Assembly: GCA_048940645.1 (NCBI GenBank)
Contig: JBHLOI010000010.1
Location: 1 to 64,000, forward strand
Length of the DNA: 64,000 nt
Direction of reading: 5' to 3'
DNA from: Promethearchaeota archaeon
Lineage (GTDB): Archaea > Asgardarchaeota > Lokiarchaeia > Sigyniarchaeales > SOKP01
In this document: positions 19,903-44,262 of the stretch, piece after piece
Numbering within the stretch: the stretch's first letter is position 1
How the letters are laid out: each line of letters begins with the position of its first letter
Notes under the pieces: model-generated
Databases searched by the model: none
What the model was told of the DNA's origin: nothing
What the model saw: the letters and a program-made list of their open reading frames with translations, nothing else
Translations under genes and position numbers: made by a program

Positions 19903-19916
19903 GAGGTTATAAAGGG

Positions 19917-22836: not shown

Positions 22837-23264
22837 TTACTGAGACAGAAATTGGATCTTTCGATCCATCAATTCTAGGCATTTTTTGCCATTGGTGTTC
22901 ATATGCAGGAGCAGATCAAGCAGGAACATCACGGATGCAAAGATATGCAAGCCTGAGAATTTTACGAGTAATGTGTGGAGGAAGAATTGATCCCCAATTT
23001 ATAGTTACTGCTTTAAAAGATGGAGTAGATGGTGTTTTAATTTCACATTGCCATCTCGGAGATTGTCATTACGTATCAGGAAATTACAAAACTGCAAGAA
23101 AAATACCATTATTATCAACATATATAAAACAATTCGGAATTAATCCTAAAAGAATCAAATATGTATTTGTTTCTGCTTCTGAAGGAACCAAATTAACTAA
23201 AATTGTCAATAACTTTGTAGAAGAATTAAAACAATTAGGTCCTAATCCATTAAAAAAAAAGTGA
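22833..23264 (+). CDS. mvhD: Hydrogenase [2Fe-2S] subunit MvhD (Cys form; start extended, CTG/ATT start)
   Basis: The frame upstream of the track ATG 22935 encodes the essential FDPSILGIFCHWCSYAGADQAGTSR. With an in-frame TGA at 22821 and SD GAGGTG at 22822, only CTG 22833 or ATT 22836 are plausible starts. Also RVMCGGR and CHLGDCHY. Confidence 0.92.
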   Translation: MITETEIGSFDPSILGIFCHWCSYAGADQAGTSRMQRYASLRILRVMCGGRIDPQFIVTALKDGVDGVLISHCHLGDCHYVSGNYKTARKIPLLSTYIKQFGINPKRIKYVFVSASEGTKLTKIVNNFVEELKQLGPNPLKKK

Positions 23265-23277
23265 GAGTGAGCGAAAA

Positions 23278-26844: not shown

Positions 26845-28215
26845 CTAATAAAATTCACAATCATTAAGCAGTTGTGAGATATCCATAACCTTTATGGGTG
26901 AATTGTCTTCAGTTGCAACTTCGAATAAATTATTTTTACAAAAAACACATGAACTGACAAGAACTTCAGCATTAGTTTCAACTGCTTCTTTTAAACGATC
27001 TTCTCTTATTCTAACCATACAAGCACGAGTTTCGGATATTCTATCTCTACCTATCTCACCTGCTATCTCACCATATAGGGCTTTTACTCCACCTCCGGCT
27101 CCGCAACACCAAGACATGTCTTTATTATGTTTCATTTCAAATAATTTGACACCTTCGATCATATTTATGAGTTCTCTTGGTTCTTCAAAAACCCCACAAT
27201 ATCTACCTAGATGGCATGGATCGTGATATGTAATAAGTAAAGGATCTTCTTTTGAACGCTTTTTATATCGAATTTTTAAATTCTTTTCTTTAACAGTTTT
27301 TAATACGAATTGTGTTAAGTGATAAAGGTCAAATTCAAGTTTTTGACCCGCATACTTAGTATATTCAAGTGTGAATGTGGAAAAACATCCAGAACAAGAA
27401 AATACGACTTCAGATACGCCGCTCTGTAGAATAATTTTGTAATTATGTTTTACAAGTTCGATGGCTTCATCTTCTAATCCAGTTCGAAATAATACTGATC
27501 CACAACATTGTTCTTCAGGAAAAAGAACAAATTCCACACCAAGTTTGGCTAAAACTTGGCTTGTTGCAGTAACTAATTCTTTATTTCTATAAGAAGAAGT
27601 ACACCCTACAAAATAACCAACCTTGCCTGGAATGGGCTTCTGACTTTCTAAATCTATGCTTGTTCTTATCGAATCCATTTCTTGTTTTGCTCGTTCATAT
27701 GCTTCTTTTCCTTCTTCACAAGCATTGCACCAATTAAATCTATCTATGTGCTTTTCTAAAAAAGGATTATTATTTTCAATAATCGAATTTTTTAGAATTT
27801 TTAATTTTGCAGGTACTGCTCCTTTCTTCACTACTTCTTTACGAAAATTTTGAAATACTTCCAATGTATCAATCCCAACAGGGCATACGACTCTACAATT
27901 ACCACATAGCATACAACGAAAAACAGAAGGTATTATTTCCTCCTTATCAAATTTAATATCTTTATTATCTAATGCTTTAATAATTCTATTCCTTCCGCCA
28001 GCATAATCTGTTTCTGACCACGAAGTATTATATACCTTACAAACATGTCGACAATAGCCGCAATGTGTACACCGATCATATGAATATTTTTCTTTTGTTT
28101 TGCTCTTAGGTTCTATTAAGTTTTCTTTAGAAGGGGAAACTAAACCCGCAACAGGTGGACCAGTAGTAATTAAATTTTTCAAATCTTTTTTCTCTTTACC
28201 TTCACTCATCTGCAT
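26845..28215 (-). CDS. HdrD/GlcF-like Fe-S oxidoreductase (2x[4Fe-4S] plus two CCG domains)
   Basis: CTHCGYCRHVC, CMLCGNCRVVCP, CCGS, CSGC, YHDPCHLGR, CCGAGGG and CVFC. Confidence 0.9.
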   Translation of the reverse strand: MQMSEGKEKKDLKNLITTGPPVAGLVSPSKENLIEPKSKTKEKYSYDRCTHCGYCRHVCKVYNTSWSETDYAGGRNRIIKALDNKDIKFDKEEIIPSVFRCMLCGNCRVVCPVGIDTLEVFQNFRKEVVKKGAVPAKLKILKNSIIENNNPFLEKHIDRFNWCNACEEGKEAYERAKQEMDSIRTSIDLESQKPIPGKVGYFVGCTSSYRNKELVTATSQVLAKLGVEFVLFPEEQCCGSVLFRTGLEDEAIELVKHNYKIILQSGVSEVVFSCSGCFSTFTLEYTKYAGQKLEFDLYHLTQFVLKTVKEKNLKIRYKKRSKEDPLLITYHDPCHLGRYCGVFEEPRELINMIEGVKLFEMKHNKDMSWCCGAGGGVKALYGEIAGEIGRDRISETRACMVRIREDRLKEAVETNAEVLVSSCVFCKNNLFEVATEDNSPIKVMDISQLLNDCEFY

Positions 28216-28341: not shown

Positions 28342-29847
28342 TCATAAAATTTTATATAATAATTTAGCAGTATTAAAGAGCAAAGAAATTCTCCAGAATT
28401 TTAATCTAGAATCAACTATACGATAGGAGTTAAATAAATCCTTTGGATCTAATTTATTTTTTAAAATTTTTCTTTTAGCAACAATTTCGGGTTTGTATTT
28501 TAATAAATAAAAAGTATTCACAATTCCTATTGTATATACACGATCCCCTTGATTAAAAGCTTGTATTGAAAGATCGTGTAAAAATGCTTTAACAGTGAAA
28601 AATTCTCTGGGTTTAACTATATCAGATAACCCGAAAACTTTTATTCTACTATATCCTTTTATTCCCGCGATTGTATATAGAGCTGTTGGAAATTTATACT
28701 TTTTACTTTCTTTAAGATATCTTTCAAAAAACTTATTTAACCTCTGATCAGAAATCCAATATTCTTGAAATAACAAATTTCTTGTTGAACGTCCGATAGA
28801 TACTTCAGCATCACTAATATCTCGCCATTTTTCTTTTAAATATACTTTATCTACTTCAATCCCTCCTAAATTTAAAGCAATAGTTTCAGAAGCTGATAAA
28901 TTTTGAGAAGTAATTTCAGGATCATCATAAAATACAGCCCAAACTAGCCAATCTTGTTCTGGAAAATTTATATGAGAATATTTTTCAAATTTACGCTCTG
29001 AAATCGAAATAAAAAATGGCTTATTTGTAAATTGATCTTTAAGATTTCTATAAAAGTCAATTGCATTTTGGTATGAAGAAAAACCATATCCAATTATTTC
29101 CAAGGAAGTTTTAAGAGTTGTAAGAGATAATTCGACTTCTGCAATAGCACCATAAATCCCATAAGTCCCAACAATATCATCCAGAGAGATTTCTCCTTTA
29201 GAATTTTTGGAAATTTCCATTATTCTTCCATCAGGAAGGACTATTTTTAAACTCAGAATCGAGTCTTCCATGGATCCATATTTTGGTACTCCTATTCCAG
29301 CAGTTCCAGGAGTTGATATAAAACCACCAACACAAGAGGTCTTAAAACTTGTAGGGTAACATTTGGGTGCAAGACCATAATCAGCAAGTTTTTCAATTAA
29401 ATTTAGCCATGAAATACCAGTTCCTACTTTAACTGTCATATTATTTTTGTCAATATTATGAATTTTGTTTAATCTGCGGGTATCTATTATTAAACCTCCT
29501 TTTGAAGGAGTTGCTGAAGAAAAACATGATGTACCTGCAGCTCTTACTGTTATTGGGATTTTTCGCTCATTACACTTTTTTATTAATAGAGAAAGACTTG
29601 TGATATCTGCGGGACGGGCTATTAAATTTGCAAGATAATTTTTTTTAAATTTATAATGATATGAAGGTAACGATGTGAGATCAGCAGATGCAGATTCAAG
29701 TTCATAAGGATTTGAACTAACGTGATAAGGAGATATAAATTCTTTTATAACTTCTTCAAAATTTTGGCTGGGTTTTTTTTTCTTTACATTTGGTGAGTTT
29801 ATAATATTAGATTCACTCTCTGAATTTTTATTATTGATTCCATTCAA
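28342..29847 (-). CDS. FAD-binding oxidoreductase (GlcD/D-lactate dehydrogenase-like)
   Basis: FAD-binding PCMH motifs: VRAAGTS, PTS...VGGFIST...G...KYG, GTYGIYGAI and terminal KxKLDPxDLFN. Confidence 0.85.
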   Translation of the reverse strand: MNGINNKNSESESNIINSPNVKKKKPSQNFEEVIKEFISPYHVSSNPYELESASADLTSLPSYHYKFKKNYLANLIARPADITSLSLLIKKCNERKIPITVRAAGTSCFSSATPSKGGLIIDTRRLNKIHNIDKNNMTVKVGTGISWLNLIEKLADYGLAPKCYPTSFKTSCVGGFISTPGTAGIGVPKYGSMEDSILSLKIVLPDGRIMEISKNSKGEISLDDIVGTYGIYGAIAEVELSLTTLKTSLEIIGYGFSSYQNAIDFYRNLKDQFTNKPFFISISERKFEKYSHINFPEQDWLVWAVFYDDPEITSQNLSASETIALNLGGIEVDKVYLKEKWRDISDAEVSIGRSTRNLLFQEYWISDQRLNKFFERYLKESKKYKFPTALYTIAGIKGYSRIKVFGLSDIVKPREFFTVKAFLHDLSIQAFNQGDRVYTIGIVNTFYLLKYKPEIVAKRKILKNKLDPKDLFNSYRIVDSRLKFWRISLLFNTAKLLYKIL

Positions 29848-29872: not shown

Positions 29873-30730
29873 TTATGACACCATTAAAAAACCTGAAAAA
29901 AAGGCAATCCACCAACAAGCTAAAGTAATATATCCTGTTAACTTAGCATATTTACGTTCAGCTGCAATTCCAAACAACATACTTAAAAATCCTGCAAGTA
30001 ATCCAACTCCACCTAATATTATATGAGACCAGTGTATTCCTGTAGAAAATGAAGTCCAGATTAATGGATCAAAAATTACTAACGATATAACATTGATTAG
30101 GGTTAAAACCCATGAAAGTCCGGCAAAAATACCATGAATTTTAACAAATTTATTTTCATTAACTAGTACTAGAACTGTTCCAATAGATAATAAAAGTAAA
30201 GCTGATAAACCAATGTACATTTCAAAATGATTAAATATTTCTAGCTTTGGGGGTGTTGGACCAATACCCCCTATACTAAATCCAATTTCTATATAATCGA
30301 AAGGAGGTGGACTACCAGAAACAGAATCGTCTCCAGCAATGATAAGAATTATATAATATCCATCTTGAGTAGGAGTTGTAATATTAAAAACAACTGTCAT
30401 TGCATTAGAAGTTGGATTTATATCATCACCAGATCCATCTAATATTCTATTTGTGGTAGGGAGAATACTAAACTGGTTATTCTCTTTGGCATCAGCAGGC
30501 GCCTGAATAAATAAGTTGGGACCAGTAGCTGTAACATTAAAAATAATAACCGTTGAAGCATTTACCGCATTTGATGTGCTTATGTTAGTACCAATTGAAT
30601 AAGCTCCCGGTACTGTGTGGCAATCTTCATGAGGCTGGGTATTGCTAGGAAATGCATTCACGTTAAAAAGAACTGATATAAATAGAGTACCGAGAAATAT
30701 AGAAATTATTAAGATAATTTTTTTTTTCAA
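29873..30730 (-). CDS. Secreted HxxCH domain fused to 4-TM His-containing (cytochrome b561/DUF420-like) domain
   Basis: Signal peptide ending VNA-FP, HEDCH at 30617-30631, a beta-rich domain, then 4 TM helices with KIHGI and HWSHIILG. Confidence 0.7.
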   Translation of the reverse strand: MKKKIILIISIFLGTLFISVLFNVNAFPSNTQPHEDCHTVPGAYSIGTNISTSNAVNASTVIIFNVTATGPNLFIQAPADAKENNQFSILPTTNRILDGSGDDINPTSNAMTVVFNITTPTQDGYYIILIIAGDDSVSGSPPPFDYIEIGFSIGGIGPTPPKLEIFNHFEMYIGLSALLLLSIGTVLVLVNENKFVKIHGIFAGLSWVLTLINVISLVIFDPLIWTSFSTGIHWSHIILGGVGLLAGFLSMLFGIAAERKYAKLTGYITLACWWIAFFSGFLMVS

Positions 30731-30922
30731 GATTCTTACCAGATTAATGAATATTTAAGTAATAAATGATGAAATCTTATTATTAAAATTTTTACTTAAA
30801 AATTATTAGTAGATATAAAGTTTTGATGTAAAAATGGCATCTAAATTTTAACTAAAAATTATTAAGATTACAAAGAAAGATTTTTAAAAATCTTTTTTAA
30901 TTTTAGAAATTTAGGTTTTTTA

Positions 30923-32632
30923 ATGAAATTTAACAAAGATTCATTGAAAACGATTATTATACTTGATTGTGTGATAATTATAATTTTTGTCATAGTTATT
31001 CCTAACTTATTAAATCTAGTTGGATTAGATTTAAAAATTCAAGTATTATCTAATCTAGCAAATTATCTAATTTTAACAACTATAATAATAACTGCCCTTG
31101 ATTTAATCTTTTTGACATTAAAGAAAGAGAATTACTTTTATTTGGCATCTTTCAATATGTCACTTTCAATTTCAGTATTTCTACTTCTTGAATATTGTTT
31201 TGTAAATGATTATTATAATTTTTTATATGTTTGGAGTTATAGTAAATCAACTTTACCATTTATTTATAAACTTGTAGCTATTTGGGCAGGGGAAGCGGGT
31301 TCTATTATGACATGGATGGTATTTAACTCAATAGTTATTTTTTTTTATAGGATTAAAAACCAAAATAAAGAAGATATTGTTTTTATCCGTTCAGTTATTA
31401 TATTATTAATTATTTCAATATTTTTTCTAATAATTTTATTTTATTTGAATCCTTTTGAATTTAGTTTAGCACCTGTTTCTGATGGGTCAGGTTTAAATCC
31501 TCTTTTAATATCTCCATTTATGATTTGGCATCCACTTTTTACCTTTATAGCTTATGCTATTTTTTTGATTCCATTTACAATAACTATAGCTGAAATGGTT
31601 TCAAAAGATTCAAAACTATTAAATTCATATCAAACTAACTTTTATGACTTTTCTTTAAAATTTGGATGGTTAGTTCTGACACTAAGCATTGGACTAGGAG
31701 CTTATTGGGCAAAAATTGCATTATTACCATGGGGGCGATATTGGGGTTGGGATCCCGTAGAAACTGTTTCGCTTATCCCTTGGTTTTTTATCACAGCATT
31801 TTTTCATACAAGACTTTTTAAAAAGAAAAATCCAAATTTAATAAAAATAAACGTAACTTTGATTTTTTTTGCAATTATTTTCTCTACATTAATTACTCGA
31901 GGCGGAGGCTTAACTTCTCTTCATGCGTTTACAGGAAAAGCAGGGCTAGTAATCTGGGTCTTAATTGTTGGTTTAATATTAATATCTCTTTCTCTTTACA
32001 CAATTTACATAATATTAGATTATATCCTAGAAGAATATAGGAAAATTAACCTTCTCTTCGATTATTTAAGTTATTTATTTTTATTTGCGTTATCAATTGT
32101 GTGTATCATCGGACTTTTGGTGCCACCCTTCACTAATTTACTTTCTACTTTTTTGCCCATTGACACAGTAACTATAGGCGTGGACTACTTTATTATAGGT
32201 ACCTCTATATTAGCCATCGGTTTGGCATTAACATTAACATTTTGTTCTTTGAGAGAATTTTTCAAGATTAAATTGATATTTTTATTGATACTTATCATTG
32301 TAGCAATTCAATCCGCTTTATCATTAGTTTTAGGATTTTTATTAGATTTATGGATAAATCCTTTAATAATGATATATTTCATTGCGTTGTTTTCTTCTTT
32401 ATTCAAATTAGTTAAAAATATCAATTTTAAAAGGGGAATTAAACAATTCTTTAGAATAAATTCAAAAACAATAATTCATGCAGGATTATCATTTATTTTA
32501 ATAGGTACTTCAGTTGATCCTAGTATATGGGTTTTTCAAGATATTTTCTTTATCACAGGCTTTATATTTTTATTGAGTGGTATAATTCCTTCAACATTTA
32601 TCTTATTTTTTATTAAAAAAATGAAATCTTGA
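30923..32632 (+). CDS. ccmF: Cytochrome c synthetase CcmF
   Basis: WAGEAGS, GLNPLL, WHP, WWD domain WGRYWGWDPVE, FFH, SLHAF and IIHAG. Confidence 0.93.
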   Translation: MKFNKDSLKTIIILDCVIIIIFVIVIPNLLNLVGLDLKIQVLSNLANYLILTTIIITALDLIFLTLKKENYFYLASFNMSLSISVFLLLEYCFVNDYYNFLYVWSYSKSTLPFIYKLVAIWAGEAGSIMTWMVFNSIVIFFYRIKNQNKEDIVFIRSVIILLIISIFFLIILFYLNPFEFSLAPVSDGSGLNPLLISPFMIWHPLFTFIAYAIFLIPFTITIAEMVSKDSKLLNSYQTNFYDFSLKFGWLVLTLSIGLGAYWAKIALLPWGRYWGWDPVETVSLIPWFFITAFFHTRLFKKKNPNLIKINVTLIFFAIIFSTLITRGGGLTSLHAFTGKAGLVIWVLIVGLILISLSLYTIYIILDYILEEYRKINLLFDYLSYLFLFALSIVCIIGLLVPPFTNLLSTFLPIDTVTIGVDYFIIGTSILAIGLALTLTFCSLREFFKIKLIFLLILIIVAIQSALSLVLGFLLDLWINPLIMIYFIALFSSLFKLVKNINFKRGIKQFFRINSKTIIHAGLSFILIGTSVDPSIWVFQDIFFITGFIFLLSGIIPSTFILFFIKKMKS

Positions 32633-32874
32633 AAGGAAAACTACTATGAAGGTTCATTTGAAACAAATCTTTCATTTTGAAACTGAAACGATCAAAATAG
32701 GCAGAAATTGAAAATAAAACTTGTTTGATTGTTTAAAATAACCAATTTTAGCAAATTTTATAAATTTTTTGAGATTTCCATAAATAAAGCAAGGTTATAA
32801 CATATTAAGCTTATACTTATATACTAAAAATCTATATCAAAAATATATTTTAAATTTACATAAGGGGATTCTTA

Positions 32875-35736
32875 ATGAAGGTAAATAAAAAAGTTTCATC
32901 TCTATTAATTACTGCTATATTATTCTTATCAATTATTGGGATTGCTATAGCTTACACCTCAGATTTTACTGATTTTTCTGGAGAGGGGCATAATAGTTGT
33001 CATGGAGATATAACACAAAGTGCTTCAGGATACATCTCATTATCATCAAGCTCAGGAACAACCGTGAATCCAAGTGAAACATTTACAATTAGCATTCAAG
33101 TCCTAAGCTTCACAGAGGCTCAAGGAAAGAATATTGAAACAGGCTTCCCAAGTGGAACACCTGGGAGAGGAGATAATAAAGATTTTACTTTTGATGCGAT
33201 TCAAAAATCAGCATCCATAGACAGCTCTGGAAATTCAATAACGATTGACTTTCAAGCTACAGCTCCGACAATTGAACAAACCTATACTCTCACTGCTGAT
33301 GCTATCTATCGAGAGGGGAGTTCTGCTTCATATTTTGCAACCGGAAATTTAATAATAACAGTTGAACCAATAAATACTCCACCTCAATTTAATAATCTAA
33401 TTGAGAGTGCTGACCCATTAGAATTAGGGCAGCAAGAAAATATTCAAATAGATGTAACTGATTCTGAGTCAAGCGTTAGCGATGTTCTCATTGAATTAGA
33501 AAATATAAATTACACCATGTCAAACATTTTAGGAAACACATATGAATATAATTGGACTCCGAATACAATAGGTATAAAAAACTATATAATTTTTGCTAAT
33601 GATACAGAGGGAAGTTGGAATAAAGTTAGTGGAAATATTAACGTAATTGATATTACAGCTCCAATATTATCTAATCTAGTTGAAAGTGCTGACCCATTGG
33701 AATTAGGACAAACAGAAGTAATACAGATTAATGCTACTGATTTATCAGGAATTAGTCAAGTGTTAATAGAAATTGGTGGCGTGAATTATACTATGGTGAA
33801 TATAGGAGGACCAATATGGGAATATAACAGCTGGACACCAACTAGCACAGGTTTAAAACCGTATATAATTTACGCTAATGATACAGAAGGAAATTGGAAT
33901 TCGTTAAATGATGATGTCACTGTAGATGACACAATAGCACCCAAATATTCTAATTTAATTGAAAATGCTGATCCACTTCCATTAGGGCAAAATGAAACGA
34001 TTTCAATTGAAATTTATGATTCACCGGGGTCTGGAGTGAAAGAAGTACTTATTGAATATGATGGTTCTAATCACACAATGATTTTTATTGGATTTAATAC
34101 ATGGAGGTGGTCTAATTGGAAGCCTATGTCTGTAGGAATCTTCAATTATTTCATTTATATGGTAGATAACAGCAACAATGTAAATATAACAGGAGGATCT
34201 ATTGAAGTCATTATCTCAACAGGACCAACAATTCAAAACTTATCAAAAAGTGCTGATCCTTTAGAATTAGGGAAGTTAGAAACGATTCAAGTTGACGTTG
34301 ATGATACTAATGGAGTGAGCAATGTATTTATTGAAATTGGGGGATTAAATTATTCAATGGTGAATATTGGGGGAATAAGATATGAATTTACCTGGAAACC
34401 AAATTCTACTGGAATAAAATTATTTAAGATTTATGCTAATGATTCTTTAAATAATTGGAATCAATTTGGAAATAGTATTTTCGTCCAAGATACAAAACCT
34501 CCAAATTTTGGAAATTTAACAGAAAGTAGCGATCCAGTTGAATTAGGAGCTCCAATAACGATTTCTATTGACACAACTGACTTGTCAGGTATTAACCAAG
34601 TCAAAATTGAATTTGAAGGTGTGAATCATTCAATGTCTTATACCGGAGGAAATACATGGTTAAATGATACTTTGATATTTAGTACTGTTGATATTCATTT
34701 ATATACCATTTATATTCAAGATAATTCTAACAACTGGAATACGACAAATGGTTTTATCGAAGTAATCGATACAACACCACCTGTATTGACAAATTTATAT
34801 GAAAGCAGTGATCCTTTAGAATTAGGACAAATTGAAGTAATTCAGATTGATATAATTGATTTAGCTCCAATAAATACAGTATTAATTGAATTTGAAGGAA
34901 AAAATTATACCATGGTAAAAATAAGCAGCTTAACCTGGGAGTACAACTGGGTTCCAACTAGCACTGGATTAAAATTATATACAATTTATGCTAACGATAC
35001 AAGCAATAATTGGATCTCGTTAGTTGCTAATATTTCTGTGGTGGATACTAATGGTCCAGTCTTATCTGCTTTATATGAGAGTGCTGATCAACTAGAATTA
35101 GGACAAACAGAGACAATTCAAATCAATGTTTCTGATCCATCAGGAATTAATCAAGTGGTAATAGAAATTGGTGGTGAAAATTATACAATGCAAAATATCG
35201 GAGGATCAAAATGGGAATATAGTTGGGCTCCAAATAGTACAGGATTGAAGCTATATACTCTTTATGCATATGACTCGATAAATAATACGGTTTCATTGAA
35301 AAATAATATTACTGTTATAGATACAACAGGACCAATTTTTTCTAATTTGGTTAAAAGCAAGGCATCAATACTTTTAGGTGAATCTGTATCTATTCAAATT
35401 GAAGTTGTGGATATATCTGGTGTTAGCGAAGTTCTTATTGAATTTAGTGGCTCAAATCATACTTTGATAAATACCGAAGGAAATACTTGGGAGTATACTG
35501 ATTGGTTCCCAAGTTCAATAGGTGAAAACTCTTTTACTATTCATGCCAAAGATAATCTTAATAATTGGAATACGGTAATTGGGAATATTTTAGTAACTGA
35601 GCAATCAGTAGGCAGTAATTTATTAACGATGAGAGAAATATTAGATATAACATTGTTTTCAAGTATATTTGGTATTACTATTTTCATAGCAATATTAATA
35701 ATAAGAACAGCAAGGAATAAACGATTTATTCAATAA
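32875..35736 (+). CDS. Surface protein: signal peptide, HxxCH domain, 8 Ig-like repeats and C-terminal TM anchor
   Basis: HNSCH at 32989-33003, repeats starting PxxxNLxESADPLELG, many NxS/T sequons, and a TM helix followed by RTARNKR. Confidence 0.85.
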   Translation: MKVNKKVSSLLITAILFLSIIGIAIAYTSDFTDFSGEGHNSCHGDITQSASGYISLSSSSGTTVNPSETFTISIQVLSFTEAQGKNIETGFPSGTPGRGDNKDFTFDAIQKSASIDSSGNSITIDFQATAPTIEQTYTLTADAIYREGSSASYFATGNLIITVEPINTPPQFNNLIESADPLELGQQENIQIDVTDSESSVSDVLIELENINYTMSNILGNTYEYNWTPNTIGIKNYIIFANDTEGSWNKVSGNINVIDITAPILSNLVESADPLELGQTEVIQINATDLSGISQVLIEIGGVNYTMVNIGGPIWEYNSWTPTSTGLKPYIIYANDTEGNWNSLNDDVTVDDTIAPKYSNLIENADPLPLGQNETISIEIYDSPGSGVKEVLIEYDGSNHTMIFIGFNTWRWSNWKPMSVGIFNYFIYMVDNSNNVNITGGSIEVIISTGPTIQNLSKSADPLELGKLETIQVDVDDTNGVSNVFIEIGGLNYSMVNIGGIRYEFTWKPNSTGIKLFKIYANDSLNNWNQFGNSIFVQDTKPPNFGNLTESSDPVELGAPITISIDTTDLSGINQVKIEFEGVNHSMSYTGGNTWLNDTLIFSTVDIHLYTIYIQDNSNNWNTTNGFIEVIDTTPPVLTNLYESSDPLELGQIEVIQIDIIDLAPINTVLIEFEGKNYTMVKISSLTWEYNWVPTSTGLKLYTIYANDTSNNWISLVANISVVDTNGPVLSALYESADQLELGQTETIQINVSDPSGINQVVIEIGGENYTMQNIGGSKWEYSWAPNSTGLKLYTLYAYDSINNTVSLKNNITVIDTTGPIFSNLVKSKASILLGESVSIQIEVVDISGVSEVLIEFSGSNHTLINTEGNTWEYTDWFPSSIGENSFTIHAKDNLNNWNTVIGNILVTEQSVGSNLLTMREILDITLFSSIFGITIFIAILIIRTARNKRFIQ
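33382..35600 (+). repeat. Eight intragenic beta-sandwich repeats of about 93 aa
   Basis: Recurrent GAAAGTGCTGAyCCATTAGAATTAGG-like DNA and ESADPLELG...IYANDTxxNWN protein motifs. Confidence 0.9.
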
Positions 35737-35808
35737 ATAATTATTTTTTTTACTTTTTAATCACTTCTCTTTATTAGGTATCATTAATTTTTCAGAAAGT
35801 TAGATAAT

Positions 35809-36522
35809 ATGATTAAATCCAATAAAAATATAATAAATTGTAATACTGTTTCTAAACAATTTGGATATTTCTTTGCACTTAAAAAAGTTTCTTTTAGTGT
35901 TAAACAATATACGATATTCGGAATTGCGGGACCAAACGGAGCCGGAAAAACAACGTTAATTAAAATCTTATCTGGATTACTAAAGCCAACTTTAGGAAAT
36001 ATTGAAATTGATGGAATGAATTATGATGATCACTCAAATATAATAAGACAAAACATCGGTATTACTACTGATGAATCATTTCTCTATGAAGAACTAACTA
36101 TTTTTGAAAATTTAAAATTCTATAATAATTTACATTTAAATTTTGAAAAGAGCAACATAAAGAATAAGATTGAGCGACTTGCTAGAAAATTCAATTTAGA
36201 AGACTGGGTAAATGAACCCATAAGTATATTGTCCCATGGAATGAAAAAAAAAGTAGAATTAATACGAGCTTTAATACATCAACCATCAGTTTTATTTTTG
36301 GATGAACCATTTTCAGGATTAGACTACCACACAACCAATATGCTGATCAACTTTTTTAAAGAATTAAAAGAATATGAGAAGGTTTCGATAATTCTGACAT
36401 CTCATAAAATGGATCTATTCCAAAAGATTTGTGATGAGTTAATTATTTTAGAAAAAGGAAAAATTGTTAAATCCATTTCAAAAGAAGATTTTGATGAATT
36501 CGAAATTGAATCATACTTTTAA
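35809..36522 (+). CDS. ccmA: Heme ABC exporter ATPase CcmA
   Basis: GPNGAGKTT, LSHGMKKK and LDEPFSGLD. Precedes ccmB in a ccm locus. Confidence 0.85.
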   Translation: MIKSNKNIINCNTVSKQFGYFFALKKVSFSVKQYTIFGIAGPNGAGKTTLIKILSGLLKPTLGNIEIDGMNYDDHSNIIRQNIGITTDESFLYEELTIFENLKFYNNLHLNFEKSNIKNKIERLARKFNLEDWVNEPISILSHGMKKKVELIRALIHQPSVLFLDEPFSGLDYHTTNMLINFFKELKEYEKVSIILTSHKMDLFQKICDELIILEKGKIVKSISKEDFDEFEIESYF

Positions 36523-36534
36523 GGTGATAAATAA

Positions 36535-37260
36535 TTGAATCATGAAAAAAATACATTAAAATTGAGATTGAAGTTATTGAAAACAATTTTATTTAAAGAT
36601 ATTAAATCTGAAATTAGACAAATAAATGATTTGTTTTCGGTTTTTCTTTTTGTTATAATAGCAACTTTTATTTTTTCATCTGTGTATAATTTTAGCACGC
36701 AATATCAAAATATGCCATTAGAGATTTTTGTAATTGAAAACTGGTTGATAATGTTTTTTACCCTTATTTATATTATGACTAAGCTATTTATTAAGGAAAA
36801 AGATTCTGGAACGCTTGGTGGAATACTTTCGTCTCCTGTCTCTACTAGCATAATTCTTTTAGGTAAAATCTTATTTTGTTTGATTTTATTAAGTTTTGTA
36901 GAAATAATTCTATTTATTTTTAGTTTTTTTATATCTGCGCCCTCAATTGGTAATTTAAACTTAATTCAGCTATTAATCTATATTGCTCTGGGAGTATTAT
37001 TACCTACATTTGACTTATCTATTTGTGGAAGTCTTGTTTCCGCTTTTTCGATGTATGCTAAAAATAAGTCTTTTGTTCTGCCTATTTTATTATTCCCTTT
37101 AATTCTACCAATTACCATACCTATAATATCTATAAATATTAAACTATTAGAGGGAAATTTAATTTTTAATCTATATTACGAAATAATATTTTTAATAGCT
37201 CATATTACTCTAATGATTTCAATATTGACATTAATTTCTCAAACTCTCTTATATGACTAA
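36535..37260 (+). CDS. ccmB: Heme exporter permease CcmB
   Basis: KDIKSEIR, F.KEKDSGTL, LLGK and LPILLFPLILP. Confidence 0.88.
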   Translation: MNHEKNTLKLRLKLLKTILFKDIKSEIRQINDLFSVFLFVIIATFIFSSVYNFSTQYQNMPLEIFVIENWLIMFFTLIYIMTKLFIKEKDSGTLGGILSSPVSTSIILLGKILFCLILLSFVEIILFIFSFFISAPSIGNLNLIQLLIYIALGVLLPTFDLSICGSLVSAFSMYAKNKSFVLPILLFPLILPITIPIISINIKLLEGNLIFNLYYEIIFLIAHITLMISILTLISQTLLYD

Positions 37261-37267
37261 AGTTATA

Positions 37268-37606
37268 TCAACTACACTGTGTAAGAATCTGATTTGCAAC
37301 CAAAATTAAAGAAGAATTGAATACACCTTTTACAACTACTTTTATGTCATTCTTAAAATCACTAGGAGGAGTAATCTGACTTATATCAACTAAAATACTA
37401 TCCTCATTCTCAGTTAAATTAAAATTCCCATTGGAATATCCCTGTACTATTCCGATTACTTGAATTTCTTTATTATAGTATTCAGAGGGATTTGATACAA
37501 CTTGAGAAACCTGAAGATAAGGTCGAGAGTATATTGTTACCAATGCAATTATTATACCTAGGGATATAACTATCCCTACGATTGCAAAAATTTTAGATTT
37601 CTTCAA
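37268..37606 (-). CDS. ccmE: Heme chaperone CcmE-like, Cys type, truncated immediately after the Cys
   Basis: N-terminal TM, an OB-fold (P..F.....VVVKG.F.....VANQILTQCS*) and position downstream of ccmC. Confidence 0.8.
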   Translation of the reverse strand: MKKSKIFAIVGIVISLGIIIALVTIYSRPYLQVSQVVSNPSEYYNKEIQVIGIVQGYSNGNFNLTENEDSILVDISQITPPSDFKNDIKVVVKGVFNSSLILVANQILTQCS

Positions 37607-37616
37607 ATTCTCACAC

Positions 37617-37769
37617 CTAAGTAGTGTTTCTTTCTAAATTCTTAATTCTTTTTAAAGTTTTTCTTAATCGAAGTTTAGGATATAAGATTAAAATTAAAAT
37701 CACAATCCAAAATAATGTAAAACTAATGCTTATAGTTATTAAATCTGATTTTAGATAATGTTCTGACAT
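37617..37769 (-). CDS. ccmD: Unannotated 50-aa CcmD-like protein
   Basis: MSEHYLKSDLITISISFTLFWIVILILILYPKLRLRKTLKRIKNLERNTT*: one TM plus a basic helix, exactly between ccmC and ccmE with gaps of 5 and 10 nt. Confidence 0.75.
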   Translation of the reverse strand: MSEHYLKSDLITISISFTLFWIVILILILYPKLRLRKTLKRIKNLERNTT

Positions 37770-37774
37770 ATAAT

Positions 37775-38512
37775 TTACTCCTCTACTAATCTTTTTTGTA
37801 TAAGTTTCTCTAATTCTTCTTTTGCTTTATCTAAATTTACTAATTTATGAACAACGTATATAAACAGAATTGTCATAGCTATTAAATTAAAGAATAACAT
37901 AAATAATTTTAATGGATCCCAATAAATATTTCCCGGTTGACCTGGATTTGGACTAATTAATGGATGTAAACTGGTAAATATTATTGCTGAGATGTAGCTT
38001 AAAGGAACTGTGGGAAATAAAGCGATCGCTAGTGCTGATGTCAATTTTGCTTTTTTATCTTTATCTTCAATCACACTCCAAAAAATCAAATAAGATAAAT
38101 AAGAAAGAAATAATACTAAAGTCATTGTTTGTCGAGCATCACTCCACTGCCAATAAATATTATTATAATCTCCAGAAGTGGCATTAAACCATAGAGAACC
38201 AGTTATTAATGTAAAAGCAGTAAAAAATACTCCAACTATTATACTATTCTTACCCAAACGACTCCAATATATTTTCTTAATTCTTAAATATAAAATATGA
38301 CATACTAAACTAATACCAAATGAAAGATACGCAAGCCATGCCCCAGACACATGGTAAAAAAAAATTGCGTATACAATTCGATTAGGGTCTCCCCATAAGA
38401 TTAAATTAAAGGAAGATAGTCCAATTATCAAGGATAAATTTACCAATAGCATTATAATTGAAATTATTAACAGCAGATTAGTTCTAAGCAATCTTATTAA
38501 AACTATAATCAT
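37775..38512 (-). CDS. ccmC: Heme delivery protein CcmC
   Basis: FFYHVSGAW, TGSLW...YWQWSDARQT (divergent WWD) and SLHP. Confidence 0.88.
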   Translation of the reverse strand: MIIVLIRLLRTNLLLIISIIMLLVNLSLIIGLSSFNLILWGDPNRIVYAIFFYHVSGAWLAYLSFGISLVCHILYLRIKKIYWSRLGKNSIIVGVFFTAFTLITGSLWFNATSGDYNNIYWQWSDARQTMTLVLFLSYLSYLIFWSVIEDKDKKAKLTSALAIALFPTVPLSYISAIIFTSLHPLISPNPGQPGNIYWDPLKLFMLFFNLIAMTILFIYVVHKLVNLDKAKEELEKLIQKRLVEE

Positions 38513-38762
38513 CGCCTCATCAAAGCATAACTATAAATTATTTTCTTATTCAATGAAATCTGTAAGCTTTTGTAGAATTAGGAAAATTATATTTAACATT
38601 TAAGACATTATTTTTTTTAATTTAAAATTTGATATTATAAAAAAAAAGTAATAGATTCTTTAGATTTTATTAGTTTTTATTATTTTTTTCTATGTTTGGC
38701 TTCATAATAGTATGTTCTATATATTTTAGAAAAATAAAAAAAAAGAAACATTAAATTTTGAT

Positions 38763-39401
38763 TTATTTAGGAGCTTTATGTTTTTTACGGCGTACAATTA
38801 TTATTATTGAAGTAGTTACTGCTATGAATACACCAAACAAGGTATAAAGTTCAAAACCAGGAATGGCTCCACCGCTGACAGTTAAAGTTAAAGTGTCTGT
38901 AGCATAAATTATACCCAATTCACTTCCATCTGTATGATTTTCAGCAGTAATAACATCAACGACTAGATTATAATCACCGTTTGTGAATGGAGCTATTAGT
39001 TTAAAAGAAATCGAAACATTTGAATCTCCATTACTATCCAAGGTTATACCATGTAATCTTATAGGATCCTCTAGAATAGACCCAAATACTGCATTATTCC
39101 CACGAGTAGAGGGAACCGCTACACTTACTTCACTATTTCTATCTATTGTTAAAGCTTCAGTAAAATTTTCAATTACTACATTTACTGTAAATTGTTGCCC
39201 TGCAGTCAATGACGTACCTTCCACAGAAGTGACAGTTACTGTTGCGCCAACGCTCTGAGTAGTGGGGCTTACAAGACCATGGCATCCACCATGCGAACCA
39301 CCAGCAAAAGTTTCAATCATAGAGGGAAATGCAACTGCTCCTCCGACTAATAACAAAAGAAAACTAGCAATTATAAAAAGAGGTATTATTTTTCTTTTCA
39401 T
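38763..39401 (-). CDS. Secreted HxxCH domain protein with IPGF-TM-basic C-terminal sorting signal (Loki/PGF-CTERM-like)
   Basis: Signal peptide AVA-FP, HGGCH at 39279-39293, and C-terminus GGAIPGFEL-TM-RRKKHK. Confidence 0.8.
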   Translation of the reverse strand: MKRKIIPLFIIASFLLLLVGGAVAFPSMIETFAGGSHGGCHGLVSPTTQSVGATVTVTSVEGTSLTAGQQFTVNVVIENFTEALTIDRNSEVSVAVPSTRGNNAVFGSILEDPIRLHGITLDSNGDSNVSISFKLIAPFTNGDYNLVVDVITAENHTDGSELGIIYATDTLTLTVSGGAIPGFELYTLFGVFIAVTTSIIIIVRRKKHKAPK

Positions 39402-39867: not shown

Positions 39868-40431
39868 ATGCAATTAGATAATATAGATAGACAAATATTA
39901 AACGCATTGTTTAAAAATGGTCGTGAGAGCTTAACAAACTTGGAGAAGGTTATAATTAAATCTGATACAGATACTATGAGTCATACAGGAATTGCCAAAC
40001 GGATAACGAAATTAGAAGAAAGCGGAGTTCTTAAGGTTCAAGCTAATACAAATATAAATAAACTTCAATATAAAGTTTTATTCTTATTAATGGAAATGAG
40101 TAATTTTGAAGAAGTGCAAAATATTATTAAAGCTTATCAAGATTGCCCTAGAGTTTTTTTGTTGGCCCCCGTAACTGGACAATATAATTTAATTTTAGGA
40201 ATAATAGGGCAAAATCTCGATGTTTTACATCGATATTTGAATTATTGCGGACCAACTAATAAAAAAGGAATTTTGCATTCCGCAACGATCTTTGCATCAG
40301 AATTTATTAAACCTAATTACATTCCTCTTAATTTATTCAGTCGGGAAAGCCAAGAAGATAAATGTGGAAATATTTGCAAAGAATGTGCAGCATATCTTGA
40401 TGGGAAATGCTATGGTTGCGGAAATTTTTAG
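39868..40431 (+). CDS. Lrp/AsnC-family transcription regulator with C-terminal Cys cluster
   Basis: LDNIDRQIL...KRITKLEESGVL HTH, TGQYNL and tail CGNICKECAAYLDGKCYGC. Confidence 0.88.
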   Translation: MQLDNIDRQILNALFKNGRESLTNLEKVIIKSDTDTMSHTGIAKRITKLEESGVLKVQANTNINKLQYKVLFLLMEMSNFEEVQNIIKAYQDCPRVFLLAPVTGQYNLILGIIGQNLDVLHRYLNYCGPTNKKGILHSATIFASEFIKPNYIPLNLFSRESQEDKCGNICKECAAYLDGKCYGCGNF

Positions 40432-40825: not shown

Positions 40826-42145
40826 ATGGCAGTAAAAGTTGCTTTTATGCAATGTTCTGATTGCTGGGGCTGTCACCAGAGCCTACTTAATGCTCATTTA
40901 GGCTTATTACCAGTACTCCCAGCATTAGATATTGTATATTGGCCAGCAGTAGTAGATTTTAAACATGATTCATTGAAATCGAGGCCTGACGGAGATATTT
41001 TAGTTGGATTTGTAGAAGGAAGCTTTAGAACTAATGAAGATATTGAAAATGCAAAACTAATGAGACAAAAATGCCAATTAATTATCTCATTTGGAAGTTG
41101 CTCATGTTATGGAAATGTTCATGGCTTAGCAAATCAATGGGATATTCAAGAACTCATCAAAAGAAAATTCAAGGACGCTGAATCAATTACCAACAAAGAT
41201 GAGGCTGGTGAACCTCAAAAACATGTTCCTGGGTTTACTGATAAAATAGTACCCTTAGATGAAATTATAAAGGTAGATGCCTATATTTCTGGTTGTCCGC
41301 CAAAACCAGAAGCAATTATTAGCTCTGTACAATTTTTACTTGGTCAAAAACCCCAACCTAAAGCAGAGAGGGCATTTTGTAATGATTGTATCTTGAGAGA
41401 AAGTGGATGTTTATTAGAAAAAAATACATTATGTTTTGGACCAATCACTAGTACAGGATGTTCATTAAAATGTACAAGTGATGGTAAACCTTGCGTTGGT
41501 TGTTTAGGACCATCTACTTCAGTAGATGCGAGAGTTAATAAGCTTGGCGATATGATTAAAAATATCGATTCCCTTAGTTCTGGAGACAAGAAGAACTTGT
41601 ATGAATTTCTTGCTCTCTTCTTAAACATTCCATTAATGGCAGGATTTGATCTAGCTGGAGATATTCTAAAACAAATTAAAAAGAGTGGCACTCCTCAAAC
41701 TCCTTTAGCAGGAATGCCTGATGAAACAACCAATATTGCTTCGAATATAATGGCCTATTTAAAAGATCACCGAGAATTCACAGAAATTTCAAACGTATGC
41801 GACACTTGTCCAAGAATTATTGGAAGTAAGTCTCAGATGACAAGAGTAAAGAGAGATTATGAAGGGTTACCTAATATGGATGATTGCTTTATTGAGCAAG
41901 GTTATCTTTGTGCGGGTCCAATTACTAAAGCTGGCTGTGGTGGTTTATGCATACGGGTCAATACTCCTTGTTCTGGTTGTTTTGGTCAAACAGAATGGAA
42001 AATTGATCAGGCAGAAAGATTTGCTGAAGTAGCAACAAAAGGCTTCAATGTGGCTTTATCAAAAGATGAACTTCTTTCCCAAATTAAGGATAAGATTGGT
42101 TTTACTGAAAAGTTCACATTAGCAGCTAATAAAAAATATAGGTAG
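40826..42145 (+). CDS. vhuG: F420-non-reducing hydrogenase small subunit VhuG/MvhG with duplicated Fe-S module
   Basis: CSDCWGCH, GSCSCYG, SGCPP and two distal cluster modules. Directly upstream of the large subunit. Confidence 0.9.
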   Translation: MAVKVAFMQCSDCWGCHQSLLNAHLGLLPVLPALDIVYWPAVVDFKHDSLKSRPDGDILVGFVEGSFRTNEDIENAKLMRQKCQLIISFGSCSCYGNVHGLANQWDIQELIKRKFKDAESITNKDEAGEPQKHVPGFTDKIVPLDEIIKVDAYISGCPPKPEAIISSVQFLLGQKPQPKAERAFCNDCILRESGCLLEKNTLCFGPITSTGCSLKCTSDGKPCVGCLGPSTSVDARVNKLGDMIKNIDSLSSGDKKNLYEFLALFLNIPLMAGFDLAGDILKQIKKSGTPQTPLAGMPDETTNIASNIMAYLKDHREFTEISNVCDTCPRIIGSKSQMTRVKRDYEGLPNMDDCFIEQGYLCAGPITKAGCGGLCIRVNTPCSGCFGQTEWKIDQAERFAEVATKGFNVALSKDELLSQIKDKIGFTEKFTLAANKKYR

Positions 42146-42157
42146 GTGAAATTAAAA

Positions 42158-43462
42158 ATGGTAAAAGAAATTGAAGTAGAACCTGTCACTCGATTAGAGG
42201 GGCATGGAGGATTAAGATTAGTATTAGGTGATGATGGAAAAGTTCAAGATGTACAATTTAATATCACTTCTACAAGATTTTTTGAAAAATTTTTAGAAGG
42301 TCGTTATTGCGAACACATTCCAAGAATAACACCAAGAATTTGCGGAATTTGCCCAATCCCACATCATTTAGCTCCAACAAAAGCAGTAGAAGATGCGTGG
42401 GGAGTTGAAATTCCTACTCCGGCATATAAATTAAGACAATTATTAATTAATGCTAAACAATATAGTTCTCATGCATTACATTTCTATGCTCTTGCGGCAC
42501 CAGATTTTTTACTTGGTCCATTTGCTGATCCTGCGTTACGGAATGTTGTTCACGTAATCAGCCAAATGCCTGATGTTGGAGCAATGGCGTTAAAGATGAT
42601 GGATTTTGGACAGAAATTATGTGCTGCTATTGGAGGTAAATCAGTTCATCCTATTTCAGCAATTGTAGGTGGAATGAAGAAGGCATTGGATGAAGATGTT
42701 CGCAATCAATTTATAAAACAAATTGATGACCAAGTAGAATGGACTAAGAAGACTGTTGATATTGGCCTTAAAGTTGTTGAAGATTATTGGGATGTAGTAG
42801 CAAACGTAGGTGTTGTACCAACATACTATGCTGGAATGACTAAAAATGGTATTCATGACATATATGAAGGAGATCTTAGAATAGTCACTCCTGATGGTAA
42901 GAAAATCGATTATGATTTCCACGATTATTTAGATGCTTTAGGTGAACATATACCTAAACATTCTTATGCAACTCACATGTATTATAAACCTGCTGGCTAT
43001 CCTGAAGGTATATATCGCGCAAATACATTAGCAATGATTAACGCAGCAGATAAAATGGCTACACCATTAGCAGATGAAGCATTACAAGCTATGAGGTCAA
43101 AAGTAGGTCAAATATCACATCACACCTTTGCTTATCACTGGGCACGCTTGATTGAATTAGTTGAATCAATAGAAATGATAGCAACGTTACTTAAAGATCC
43201 AGATATCGTGAATCCAGATTGTAAAACCTTAGATGTACAACCTAGGGAAGCCGAAGGAGTTGGTTTGGTTGAAGCTCCACGAGGTTTGTTATTATACCAT
43301 ATATTTTCAGATGCAGATGGACTTTGTAAGAAAGCAAATCTATTAGTTGCTACAAACCATAATATCGCTGGAATAGAAAAGACATTAATGCATGTTGCAA
43401 AGCAAGTATTTGAAGACAACGCATTAGATGGATTAAAATTACCAGACCCCTGGATTAAATAA
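42158..43462 (+). CDS. vhuA: [NiFeSe] hydrogenase large subunit lacking the C-terminal Ni-binding peptide (likely start ATG 42158)
   Basis: PVTRLEGHG, RICGICP, EAPRG and VATNHN. There is no DPCxxC; that motif is supplied by the downstream vhuU. Confidence 0.93.
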   Translation: MVKEIEVEPVTRLEGHGGLRLVLGDDGKVQDVQFNITSTRFFEKFLEGRYCEHIPRITPRICGICPIPHHLAPTKAVEDAWGVEIPTPAYKLRQLLINAKQYSSHALHFYALAAPDFLLGPFADPALRNVVHVISQMPDVGAMALKMMDFGQKLCAAIGGKSVHPISAIVGGMKKALDEDVRNQFIKQIDDQVEWTKKTVDIGLKVVEDYWDVVANVGVVPTYYAGMTKNGIHDIYEGDLRIVTPDGKKIDYDFHDYLDALGEHIPKHSYATHMYYKPAGYPEGIYRANTLAMINAADKMATPLADEALQAMRSKVGQISHHTFAYHWARLIELVESIEMIATLLKDPDIVNPDCKTLDVQPREAEGVGLVEAPRGLLLYHIFSDADGLCKKANLLVATNHNIAGIEKTLMHVAKQVFEDNALDGLKLPDPWIK

Positions 43463-43486
43463 AGGTAGAATTAAGGAGGAAAAAAA

Positions 43487-43639
43487 ATGAGTGAAGATGT
43501 ACCAGAAGGAGTAGTAAACCTTCTTGAAATGATAGTTAGATGTTTTGATTGCTGACTATCGTGTGCCGCACATATCACAGTTGTGAAAGAAAACGGCGAG
43601 GAGGTTTATTCTCGTAAATTGAATGTTGGCTTAGGATGA
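43487..43639 (+). CDS. vhuU: Unannotated selenoprotein VhuU (Sec UGA at 43553-43555)
   Basis: SD AGGAGG. MSEDVPEGVVNLLEMIVRCFDC-U-LSCAAHITVVKENGEEVYSRKLNVGLG*. The TGA sits exactly at the Ni-ligand position of the DP(C/U)xxCxxH motif. Confidence 0.92.
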
Positions 43640-43695
43640 ATATCTAATAAAAATAATAGATTGGATATAACTGCCCTTGCTCGGGTTAAAGCCAA
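43626..43695 (+). promoter_or_regulatory. Candidate SECIS element for vhuU
   Basis: ATGA at 43636-43639, stem ATATCTAAT/ATTGGATAT (or ATCTA/TAGAT followed by GA at 43664), A-run loop at 43649-43653 and outer helix TTGGCTT/AAGCCAA. Confidence 0.6.
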
Positions 43696-43741
43696 AAAAT
43701 ATATGAAATGATTTGAAAAAGATAGGATAGAGTGAGAAAAA

Positions 43742-44248
43742 ATGGCAACAGATTTCGAATTTAGAAAACAAGTTATGGATTTTCATGTGGGGTCTGATGT
43801 AATCAAATATTGTTATCAATGTAGTCGCTGTGCCGATAATTGTCCAGTTACAAAAGTAACCACAGATTTTTATGGCACTACAGGATATAATCCAAGAAGT
43901 AATATTTTAAATGCATTGTTAGGATACAAAGATGCTATTTTTACCGAAGATCCATTAGTTATTTGGGGGTGTACTGTTTGTGATACCTGTGATGAAGTAT
44001 GTCCGCAAAGCATTGAGTTAACTGAAATATTTACCTTGCTAAAAAATATGTCTATTAAACAAGGAGAGGGTCCTGAATTTATTTATTCTCAAGCAAAAGC
44101 AATATTTGAGAATGCGAAAGCTATTCCATCACAACCAGCAATTGAAAGAAGAAGAGACCAATTAGGCTTACCAGCTGTAGCTACACCTGACGTAAATGAA
44201 ATTCAGACCTTAATGAAAAATATTGGAGCTGATAAAAAGCTCAAATAA
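43742..44248 (+). CDS. hdrC: Heterodisulfide reductase subunit C (second copy)
   Basis: CYQCSRCADNCP and WGCTVCDTCDEVCP. Confidence 0.9.
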   Translation: MATDFEFRKQVMDFHVGSDVIKYCYQCSRCADNCPVTKVTTDFYGTTGYNPRSNILNALLGYKDAIFTEDPLVIWGCTVCDTCDEVCPQSIELTEIFTLLKNMSIKQGEGPEFIYSQAKAIFENAKAIPSQPAIERRRDQLGLPAVATPDVNEIQTLMKNIGADKKLK

Positions 44249-44262
44249 AAGGAGGGATGTAA

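Follow-up and report, generated by a model that had tools for sequence, protein, structure and literature searches.

A cytochrome c maturation locus of a Lokiarchaeia-type Asgard archaeon whose candidate clients display single-cysteine H-Xn-CH motifs

This work deals with a cytochrome c maturation (Ccm, or System I) locus located in a 64,000-nucleotide DNA stretch of a Promethearchaeota archaeon (GenBank assembly GCA_048940645.1, contig JBHLOI010000010.1, positions 1 to 64,000), hereafter referred to as the window. Three proteins encoded among the ccm genes and designated A, B and C display HEDCH, HNSCH and HGGCH, respectively, in place of the CXXCH motif with its two thioether-forming cysteines. 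Judging from their sequences and genomic context, these proteins are probably single-thioether c-type haemoproteins produced by an adapted System I. The case is built on direct observations, namely the family membership of the three proteins, the conservation of their motif, their linkage with the ccm genes, the lack of other substrates and the integrity of the Ccm set. At its core lies an attachment enzyme that appears to be maintained though no CxxCH client is present. System I is thought to require CxxCH, and Loki-type Asgard archaea are usually described as cytochrome-free syntrophs. To our knowledge, natural cytochromes c with a single Cys are well known only from the Euglenozoa, where a different enzyme is used. 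No account of HXXCH, of the present domain family or of such an Asgard Ccm was found in the literature searched.

The three CH proteins and their domain family

The preliminary description of the window had reported ccmF, ccmAB and ccmC-D-E interleaved with three HxxCH proteins, and the open reading frames (ORFs) and motif coordinates were all recovered as claimed. Protein A (29873..30730, reverse strand; 285 amino acids, aa) consists of a signal peptide, HEDCH (30617-30631), a beta-sandwich and a four-helix membrane module. Protein B (32875..35736, forward strand; 953 aa) displays a signal peptide, HNSCH (32989-33003), a beta-sandwich, a stalk of immunoglobulin (Ig)-like repeats and a C-terminal membrane anchor. 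Protein C (38763..39401, reverse strand; 212 aa) combines a signal peptide, HGGCH (39279-39293) and a beta-sandwich with a Loki-CTERM match (25.3 bits, cut-off 19.9). The hydrophobic N-terminus of all three ends in A-x-A and, together with the membrane anchors of A and B and the Loki-CTERM of C, marks them as exported, as c-type cytochromes are. In each motif the Cys is directly followed by a His, as the proximal haem ligand would be. The motif Cys had also been described as the only extracytoplasmic one of each protein, which is borne out by the cysteine counts: B contains a single Cys in its 953 residues, C contains a single Cys, and A contains Cys37 and Cys272, the latter within its last membrane helix.

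The N-terminal domains of A, B and C are 26-28% identical in pairwise comparisons, and the further motifs said to be shared by them (..DN..F, D..G and F...P.....Y) map onto conserved alignment columns. A confident beta-sandwich (predicted local distance difference test, pLDDT, 89.5) was obtained for protein C using AlphaFold2 on the family alignment, with the CH in a lower-confidence N-terminal segment. In the stalk of B, the N-terminal motif of the Ig-like unit is repeated six times with a spacing of about 93 aa, and the protein contains 26 N-x-S/T sequons. The C-terminal module of A displays conserved His168, His199, His236 and Trp273. The Loki-CTERM signal of C identifies the host as an Asgard archaeon. 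Close homologues are labelled as Promethearchaeota or Hodarchaeota metagenome-assembled genomes and are annotated as hypothetical proteins only.

A profile of the domain, about 150 residues long, was used in an exhaustive hidden Markov model search against 1.84 billion cluster representatives. It matched 118 proteins, 87 of which contain 'CH' inside their first 100 residues; the family comprises about 85 clusters at 50% identity. In an alignment of 85 of these 87, Cys-His are the sole invariant columns, and N82, F85 and P117 are near-invariant. Judged by this, the presence of the motif in A, B and C is not due to chance. The residue found upstream is more variable. Among the 87 representatives, a His precedes the Cys with a spacing of 2 (n=41), 3 (n=19), 4 (n=8), 5 (n=1) or 6 (n=2) residues; a Cys takes its place in ten, four of them canonical CxxCH, and six have neither, including one FSSCH (P0104). 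Canonical CxxCH is displayed by the members P0031, P0041, P0081 and P0099. When sequences from related genomes are added (n=97), 72 have a His upstream, 18 have a Cys and seven have neither, and His and Cys are mutually exclusive throughout. The check on homologues thus favours the preliminary description, with CH invariant and the upstream His frequent; one correction is that the motif is not strictly HxxCH across the family, as 2 to 6 residues separate the His from the Cys.

Parsimony on a tree made without the motif requires about 9-10 changes each for the His and the Cys labels, and 12 when all three labels are taken jointly; the well-supported branches alone require just 1-2 per label. 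Their mutual exclusion and repeated exchange make it probable that the residue at the upstream position has a real function. In P0062 and P0069, one residue is inserted between Cys and His (C-G-H and C-A-H in place of CH). The domain is also found fused to a rhodanese domain in P0052 and to a LanC-like/glycosidase-like domain in P0083, which points to possible functions other than simple electron transfer.

As judged by profile comparisons, the CH-domain proteins form an unannotated Asgard family. No matching family was found in Pfam. The NCBIfam model NF041895 (choice-of-anchor V, choice_anch_V) weakly matches 35 of 85 members, with a best E-value of 1e-9; B and C reach 17.7-31.9 bits (B 26.6-31.9), where at least 42 are demanded, and A gives no match. 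A Reeler-like bacterial cluster of the ESM Atlas (score 0.85) is a lead only. The likeness to Reeler-like proteins suggested in the preliminary description is thus retained as some resemblance to Reeler and choice-of-anchor V domains, but the scores are all below threshold. The ccm-linked novel family of the Nature 2023 FESNov paper was also considered and turned out to be the ccmD of class HRBIN17, unrelated to the CH-domain family.

The Ccm machinery and the search for other clients

The Ccm set is encoded by ccmF (30923..32632, forward; 569 aa, recognized by both Pfam and NCBIfam), the ABC ATPase gene ccmA (35809..36522, forward; Pfam ABC_tran 1.7e-32, with orthologues in every related cluster), the ABC permease gene ccmB (36535..37260, forward; Pfam CcmB 32.9 bits, cut-off 24.9), ccmE (37268..37606, reverse; 112 aa, Pfam CcmE 37.7 bits), a ccmD-like gene and ccmC (37775..38512, reverse; 245 aa, NCBIfam ccmC 6.5e-21). 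Alignments to the Thermus thermophilus CcmF (6ZMQ) and to that of f31, a more distant Asgard family, indicate that CcmF retains P-His1, the WWD motif, TM-His1, P-His2 and TM-His2, and that it is devoid of the external domain of about 70 residues which follows TM-His2 in f31. CcmC, aligned to the Escherichia coli protein (7F02), retains both haem-ligand His and the W-x-W-S-D form of the WWD motif. The WWD motif and haem-ligand His of an archaeal System I are therefore present in both proteins. Compared to two related genomes, the ratio of nonsynonymous to synonymous substitution rates (dN/dS) is 0.08-0.27 for all ccm genes and 0.12-0.16 for ccmF, rough values as dS is near saturation. By these measures, the Ccm set appears intact and under purifying selection.

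The most unusual component is CcmE, which ends in ...ILTQCS-stop. All six genomes examined from f1, the family of the window, share this ...QCS-stop ending: the haem-binding Cys remains, and the Tyr of the archaeal CxxxY motif and the tail following it are gone. The CcmE of f31 has a normal archaeal CPSKY (...QCPSKYE). Stop codon read-through was considered, as the TGA of the window is followed by a Tyr codon, and was rejected. Since the six genomes use different stop codons (TGA, TAA or TAG) and show no conservation of the reading frame beyond them, the truncation is to all appearances genuine. It contradicts the statement that archaeal CcmE universally carries CxxxY (PMC9084895). The Tyr is missing exactly in the lineage whose clients miss the first Cys of CxxCH (Cys1). 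The ccmD-like gene (37617..37769, reverse; 50 aa) encodes a single-helix protein with sub-threshold matches to CcmD (Pfam 21.3 bits, cut-off 25.6; TIGR03141 19 bits). Five further f1 genomes have retained an ORF of this kind (45-51 aa) in the ccmC-ccmE interval. According to the same study, archaea universally lack CcmD, are devoid of CcmH and CcmI, and in Methanosarcina acetivorans CcmABCEF functions without extra factors (PMC9084895).

Particular attention was devoted to other possible substrates. The preliminary description had noted the absence of exported CxxCH proteins in the window, which also holds for the whole genome it originates from: no exported CxxCH, CxxxCH, CxxxxCH or CxxCK protein was found in its 3.83 Mb (89.6% complete). 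About 50 CxxCH were retrieved by a six-frame scan, every one of them single and none in an exported cytochrome. The candidates with hydrophobic segments are an HdrD-like Fe-S protein, an AAA ATPase and a small protein without Pfam match, in which three such segments precede a CLHCH at the very C-terminus. Pairs of CxxCH codon patterns lying close together number 0-1 in four nearly complete ccm-positive f1 genomes, 0 in five ccm-negative ones and 5 in an f31 positive control. A run of three in-frame CxxCH in genome G207 belongs to a cytoplasmic HNH-like protein. The possibility that the real Ccm substrates are CxxCH proteins encoded elsewhere thus finds no candidate in this genome, leaving A, B and C as the only plausible Ccm clients.

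In f31, cytochromes with 6-7 CxxCH haem sites are encoded directly upstream of ccmF, and the CH-domain members display CxxCH (CGNCH, CSDCH, CADCH), Cx4-5CH or CxCH at the same position. The term 'dedicated', applied to this System I in the preliminary description, is accordingly appropriate for the window's lineage but not for f31, whose cluster also holds multihaem CxxCH cytochromes. The latter are located at L038:755-2191 (+) in G355, L041:16-1551 (+) in G372 and L047:1-1194 (+) in G377, and after the multihaem and ccmF genes come three to five GlcD/HdrD pairs, accompanied by genes for CH-domain or four-helix membrane proteins; together they form a putative large electron-export island of another Asgard family.

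Genomic linkage and redox context

The occurrence of the domain was compared to that of a CcmC/CcmF-type gene in 400 Asgard genomes. The domain is present in 75 and the ccm gene in 102; both occur in 71, the domain only in 4, ccm only in 31 and neither in 294, bearing in mind that kinship among the genomes inflates any P value. The proposed linkage of the family with ccm genes is thereby confirmed, as 71 of the 75 domain-bearing genomes contain both. Of the four genomes with the domain only, one reaches just 60% completeness, and CH is kept in all three of those looked at, G138 being left out. In genomes carrying both, the domain and the ccm genes usually share one cluster, and this tight linkage spans three Asgard families. 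Within f1 the distribution is patchy yet identical for domain and ccm: both are found in one set of 11 genomes among the 42 of the window's genus (g1), and in one set of 19 among the 54 of a second genus (g12). The gene order HdrD-GlcD-A / ccmF-B-ccmA-ccmB / ccmE-ccmD-ccmC-C / AsnC-like regulator is kept in six f1 genomes. The Ccm proteins of the window (G000) are 63-77% similar to those of g12 and 63-68% to their counterparts in another g1 genome (comparisons with G262 and G203). As the similarity to g12 matches that within the genus, and in view of the patchy distribution, these values suggest that the entire ccm/CH cluster may move between lineages. In the closed g12 genome G189 (L035, C1:3290000-3307000), ccmF is present as a tandem pair (encoding 594 and 588 aa), CcmE has 89 aa and ends in ...YCCDRSTGV, and the CH proteins read HDYMGCH and ATLGCH; by its sequence, this cluster would be a third variant of the system.

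Protein A is encoded next to two redox enzymes. A GlcD-like dehydrogenase binding flavin adenine dinucleotide (28342..29847, reverse; Pfam FAD_binding_4 2.5e-33) is located immediately downstream of it, and the A-GlcD-HdrD run is closed by an HdrD/GlcF-like Fe-S protein (26845..28215, reverse) with a 4Fe-4S dicluster and two CCG domains (Pfam CCG 6.6e-31, Fer4_8). This synteny is kept in g1, g12 and f31. The membrane module of A is a predicted four-helix bundle (pLDDT 90.9), which in f31 also occurs as a separate small gene ahead of GlcD/HdrD pairs. It has no Pfam match, a Foldseek search of the PDB returned nothing significant, and VIA-align retrieved generic four-helix bundles only (Z <=11.8). 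Compared with membrane b-type cytochromes of the b561, HdrE or NarI type, the module offers its three conserved His within the bundle as possible ligands, but no fold match specific to such a family. Natural fusions of the CH domain to Fer4_8 and CCG (HdrD-like) modules are found in P0012 and P0023. Taken with the conserved A-GlcD-HdrD run, these fusions suggest that the CH-domain proteins may have a redox role, on an electron path that would start at a flavin/Fe-S dehydrogenase in the cytoplasm, cross the membrane and reach the surface.

Beyond protein C lies a gene for an AsnC-type helix-turn-helix (HTH) protein with a Cys-rich C-terminus (39868..40431, forward; Pfam HTH_AsnC-type), whose orthologues border the ccm cluster in G262, G203, G250, G217 and G228 and which is a candidate regulator of the cluster. 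The cluster is bordered by two gene sets (19249-23952 and 40826-45135, both forward) of the Mvh-type [NiFe] hydrogenase and Hdr-like kind, and the product of an ORF at 17316-18686 (reverse) displays near its N-terminus a Cys motif resembling the one in the hydrogenase small subunit encoded at 40826. The surroundings of the cluster are an energy-metabolism island. A leucine-rich-repeat protein of 708 aa with HEAT repeats (24682-26808, forward) is encoded just upstream of the HdrD-like gene.

Proposed mechanism, alternatives and related systems

What we infer beyond these observations is haem as the cofactor, the chemistry of its attachment, and the direction and partners of the electron flow. 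A, B and C would be extracytoplasmic mono-haem proteins whose attachment motif, originally C-Xn-CH, has decayed to (H/C/none)-Xn-CH. CcmABC(D) would load haem onto the single Cys of the tail-less CcmE, from which it would be passed to the apoprotein by CcmF. One thioether would then be formed by the invariant Cys, presumably to the 4-vinyl group, with the neighbouring invariant His as the proximal iron ligand, and the upstream His would stand in for Cys1 at the 2-vinyl edge. The upstream residue could aid the release of haem from CcmE, contribute to packing or form a His-vinyl bond. Electrons could proceed from the GlcD-like flavoenzyme and the HdrD-like Fe-S protein to the membrane module of A, its haem domain, and on to C (lipid- or sortase-anchored) and B (on its long glycosylated stalk), or in the reverse direction. 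The surface haem domains would thus stand at different heights, A at the membrane, C on its sorting-signal anchor and B on a repeat stalk.

The single-thioether reading put forward in the preliminary description is supported, in that each consequence that could be checked in silico came out in its favour and relatives display CxxCH at the same position. The suggestion that the extra His serves as a second axial ligand is not favoured: by inferred geometry, the HxxCH spacing would be too short to reach the far face of the haem. A sixth-ligand role is therefore unlikely at this spacing, which leaves a covalent or structural partner at the 2-vinyl edge. A more far-reaching version has the upstream His chemically replacing Cys1 via a His-N-vinyl bond. 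It combines one thioether and one His-vinyl link with a co-adapted System I, whose Tyr-less CcmE would hand haem over differently, and with a haem-based extracellular electron route in some Lokiarchaeia-type Asgard archaea. This version seems unlikely as a whole, with some appreciable chance of being true. His-vinyl bonds are known from CcmE His130 and cyanobacterial GlbN.

Several points weigh against the single-thioether reading. Interchange of His and Cys is also typical of metal-ligand sites. The genome of the window is only 89.6% complete, and the co-occurrence is partly trivial because the genes form one cluster gained or lost as a unit. Fold searches return only generic Ig/MG-like matches: Foldseek retrieved only generic MG/Ig-like domains of the PDB for the CH domain, and complement MG domains rank at the top of an exhaustive VIA-align search (Z ~9). 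The only rows of the latter covering the N-terminal segment are two cytochrome f entries (Z 7.9, root-mean-square deviation 3.9, 132 aligned; Z 7.3, 130 aligned), in which the alignment begins at the predicted mature N-terminus. These scores are within the usual background of 7-8 and amount to a modelled lead, not a proof. A profile search of PDB sequences gave just a marginal Caf1 match and no cytochrome f sequence match. Furthermore, the System I of E. coli copes very poorly with single-Cys variants, leaving a trapped CcmE-haem-cytochrome adduct (PMC3268396), so an adaptation of the window's System I must be assumed. As this adduct is trapped at CcmE, and as the Tyr and tail of CcmE were lost in the same lineage as Cys1, a co-adaptation of CcmE to Cys1-less clients is plausible.

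Haem supply raises a further objection, since HemB is missing in the window's own genome and in 29 of the 30 f1 genomes with the cluster. HemC was not found in the window's own genome either, at its 89.6% completeness, and HemB occurs in 20 of the 400 Asgard genomes. The objection is weakened by the f31 genomes, which have obvious multihaem cytochromes and lack HemB too, so that haem salvage seems to be the rule. G228 is the only f1 genome (of 134) with HemB. Its operon (L056:1914-11583; C2:45.9-55.6 kb) comprises hemA, hemL, hemB, hemC, a SUMT-hemD fusion, ahbA, ahbB, ahbC and an ahbD-like gene, that is, the full siroheme-to-haem (Ahb) route. It is located about 13 kb from the H-type/ccm cluster and adjoins a NIR_SIR siroheme sulfite reductase and sulfur-amino-acid genes. 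This single instance is supportive of the haem reading and not decisive.

Among the alternatives, the (H/C)-Xn-CH loop could be a non-haem Cu, Zn or Fe site on a surface Ig-like domain, with Ccm serving another, unrecognised substrate. The free exchange of Cys and His at position 1 is metal-ligand-like, the confident fold matches include no haem protein, and there is no conserved distal ligand, only N82, F85 and P117 being near-invariant. However, the seven of 97 members that keep CH without an upstream His or Cys, the lack of an alternative Ccm substrate in the genome, the tight ccm linkage over three Asgard families and the canonical CxxCH of relatives all argue against such a site. Adjacent Cys-His is a signature of haem c, not of common metal sites. 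A metal site is accordingly considered improbable. The H-type proteins might instead be former c-type cytochromes with haem now non-covalent or absent, Ccm only delivering haem outward, for example to the membrane module of A. Cys1 is indeed gone, CcmE and CcmF are trimmed in the window's lineage and the E. coli Ccm matures single-Cys proteins poorly (PMC3268396). After such a loss, however, the CH found in 72 of 72 H-type sequences would be unexpected, and the attachment enzyme CcmF keeps all its catalytic residues at a dN/dS of 0.12-0.16. This explanation is regarded as slightly more improbable still.

The interleaving of A, B and C with the ccm genes, in a domain of life devoid of CcmH and CcmI (PMC9084895), could also designate them as maturation accessories replacing CcmH, CcmG or CcmI rather than as substrates. 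Ccm would then be left without any substrate in this genome. Three types of surface anchor, a glycosylated stalk in a protein of 953 aa and fusions to HdrD-like, rhodanese and LanC-like modules are better suited to effectors, and the M. acetivorans CcmABCEF needs no extra factors (PMC9084895). An accessory role hence appears very improbable, far more so than the other two alternatives.

The novelty would reside in a c-type cytochrome and System I with H-Xn-CH clients, and would be categorical only if a His-vinyl link were demonstrated, which would define a new class of covalent haem attachment. If the single-thioether reading is correct, a natural System I with H-Xn-CH-only clients and a Tyr-less CcmE would permit the roles of Cys1 and of the CcmE Tyr to be probed, and would constitute a ready-made test of whether His can bond to vinyl. 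Motif-based cytochrome censuses would be undercounting, since CxxCH scans miss such proteins. In some Loki-type Asgard archaea, HdrD/GlcD-type enzymes of the cytoplasm would be connected to a redox chain at the cell surface, which bears on syntrophy and electron-exchange models for the origin of eukaryotes.

The proposed system shares features with several known ones. Like the A/B/C family, the choice-of-anchor V (NF041895) and Reeler-like proteins display an N-terminal beta-sandwich of about 150 aa after a signal peptide and varied C-terminal anchors, but the family scores fall below the curated 42-bit cut-off. As in HdrDE and DsrMK-type complexes, the gene for an HdrD-like CCG/Fe-S protein is adjacent to a small His-bearing membrane module; the module of A, however, is a four-helix one with three conserved His, continues an external CH domain in the same polypeptide, and is not assignable to a specific family or fold. 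The large domain of cytochrome f, a haem c protein, is a beta-sandwich like the one predicted here, with its attachment motif near the mature N-terminus, but it has CxxCH and a second small domain, and shares no sequence similarity with the CH-domain family. The euglenozoan single-Cys cytochromes c and c1 ((A/F)XXCH, PMC8262978) also display one thioether Cys followed by the proximal His, to be compared with the FSSCH of P0104. They are alpha-helical class I proteins of mitochondria matured by a divergent HCCS, whereas the candidate clients of the window have a predicted beta-sandwich, System I, a His at position 1 and variable spacing. The closest likeness in machinery is to the streamlined archaeal System I of M. 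acetivorans (PMC9084895), with which the window shares a secreted apoprotein with Cys-His just after the signal peptide, CcmA/B/C/E/F with WWD and all haem-ligand His, a Cys-type CcmE and no CcmH. It differs in that its clients read His for the first Cys of CxxCH, its CcmE stops one residue past the Cys without the Tyr of CxxxY, its CcmF is encoded by one gene with an N-terminal extension and no external domain, and a CcmD-like gene is present.

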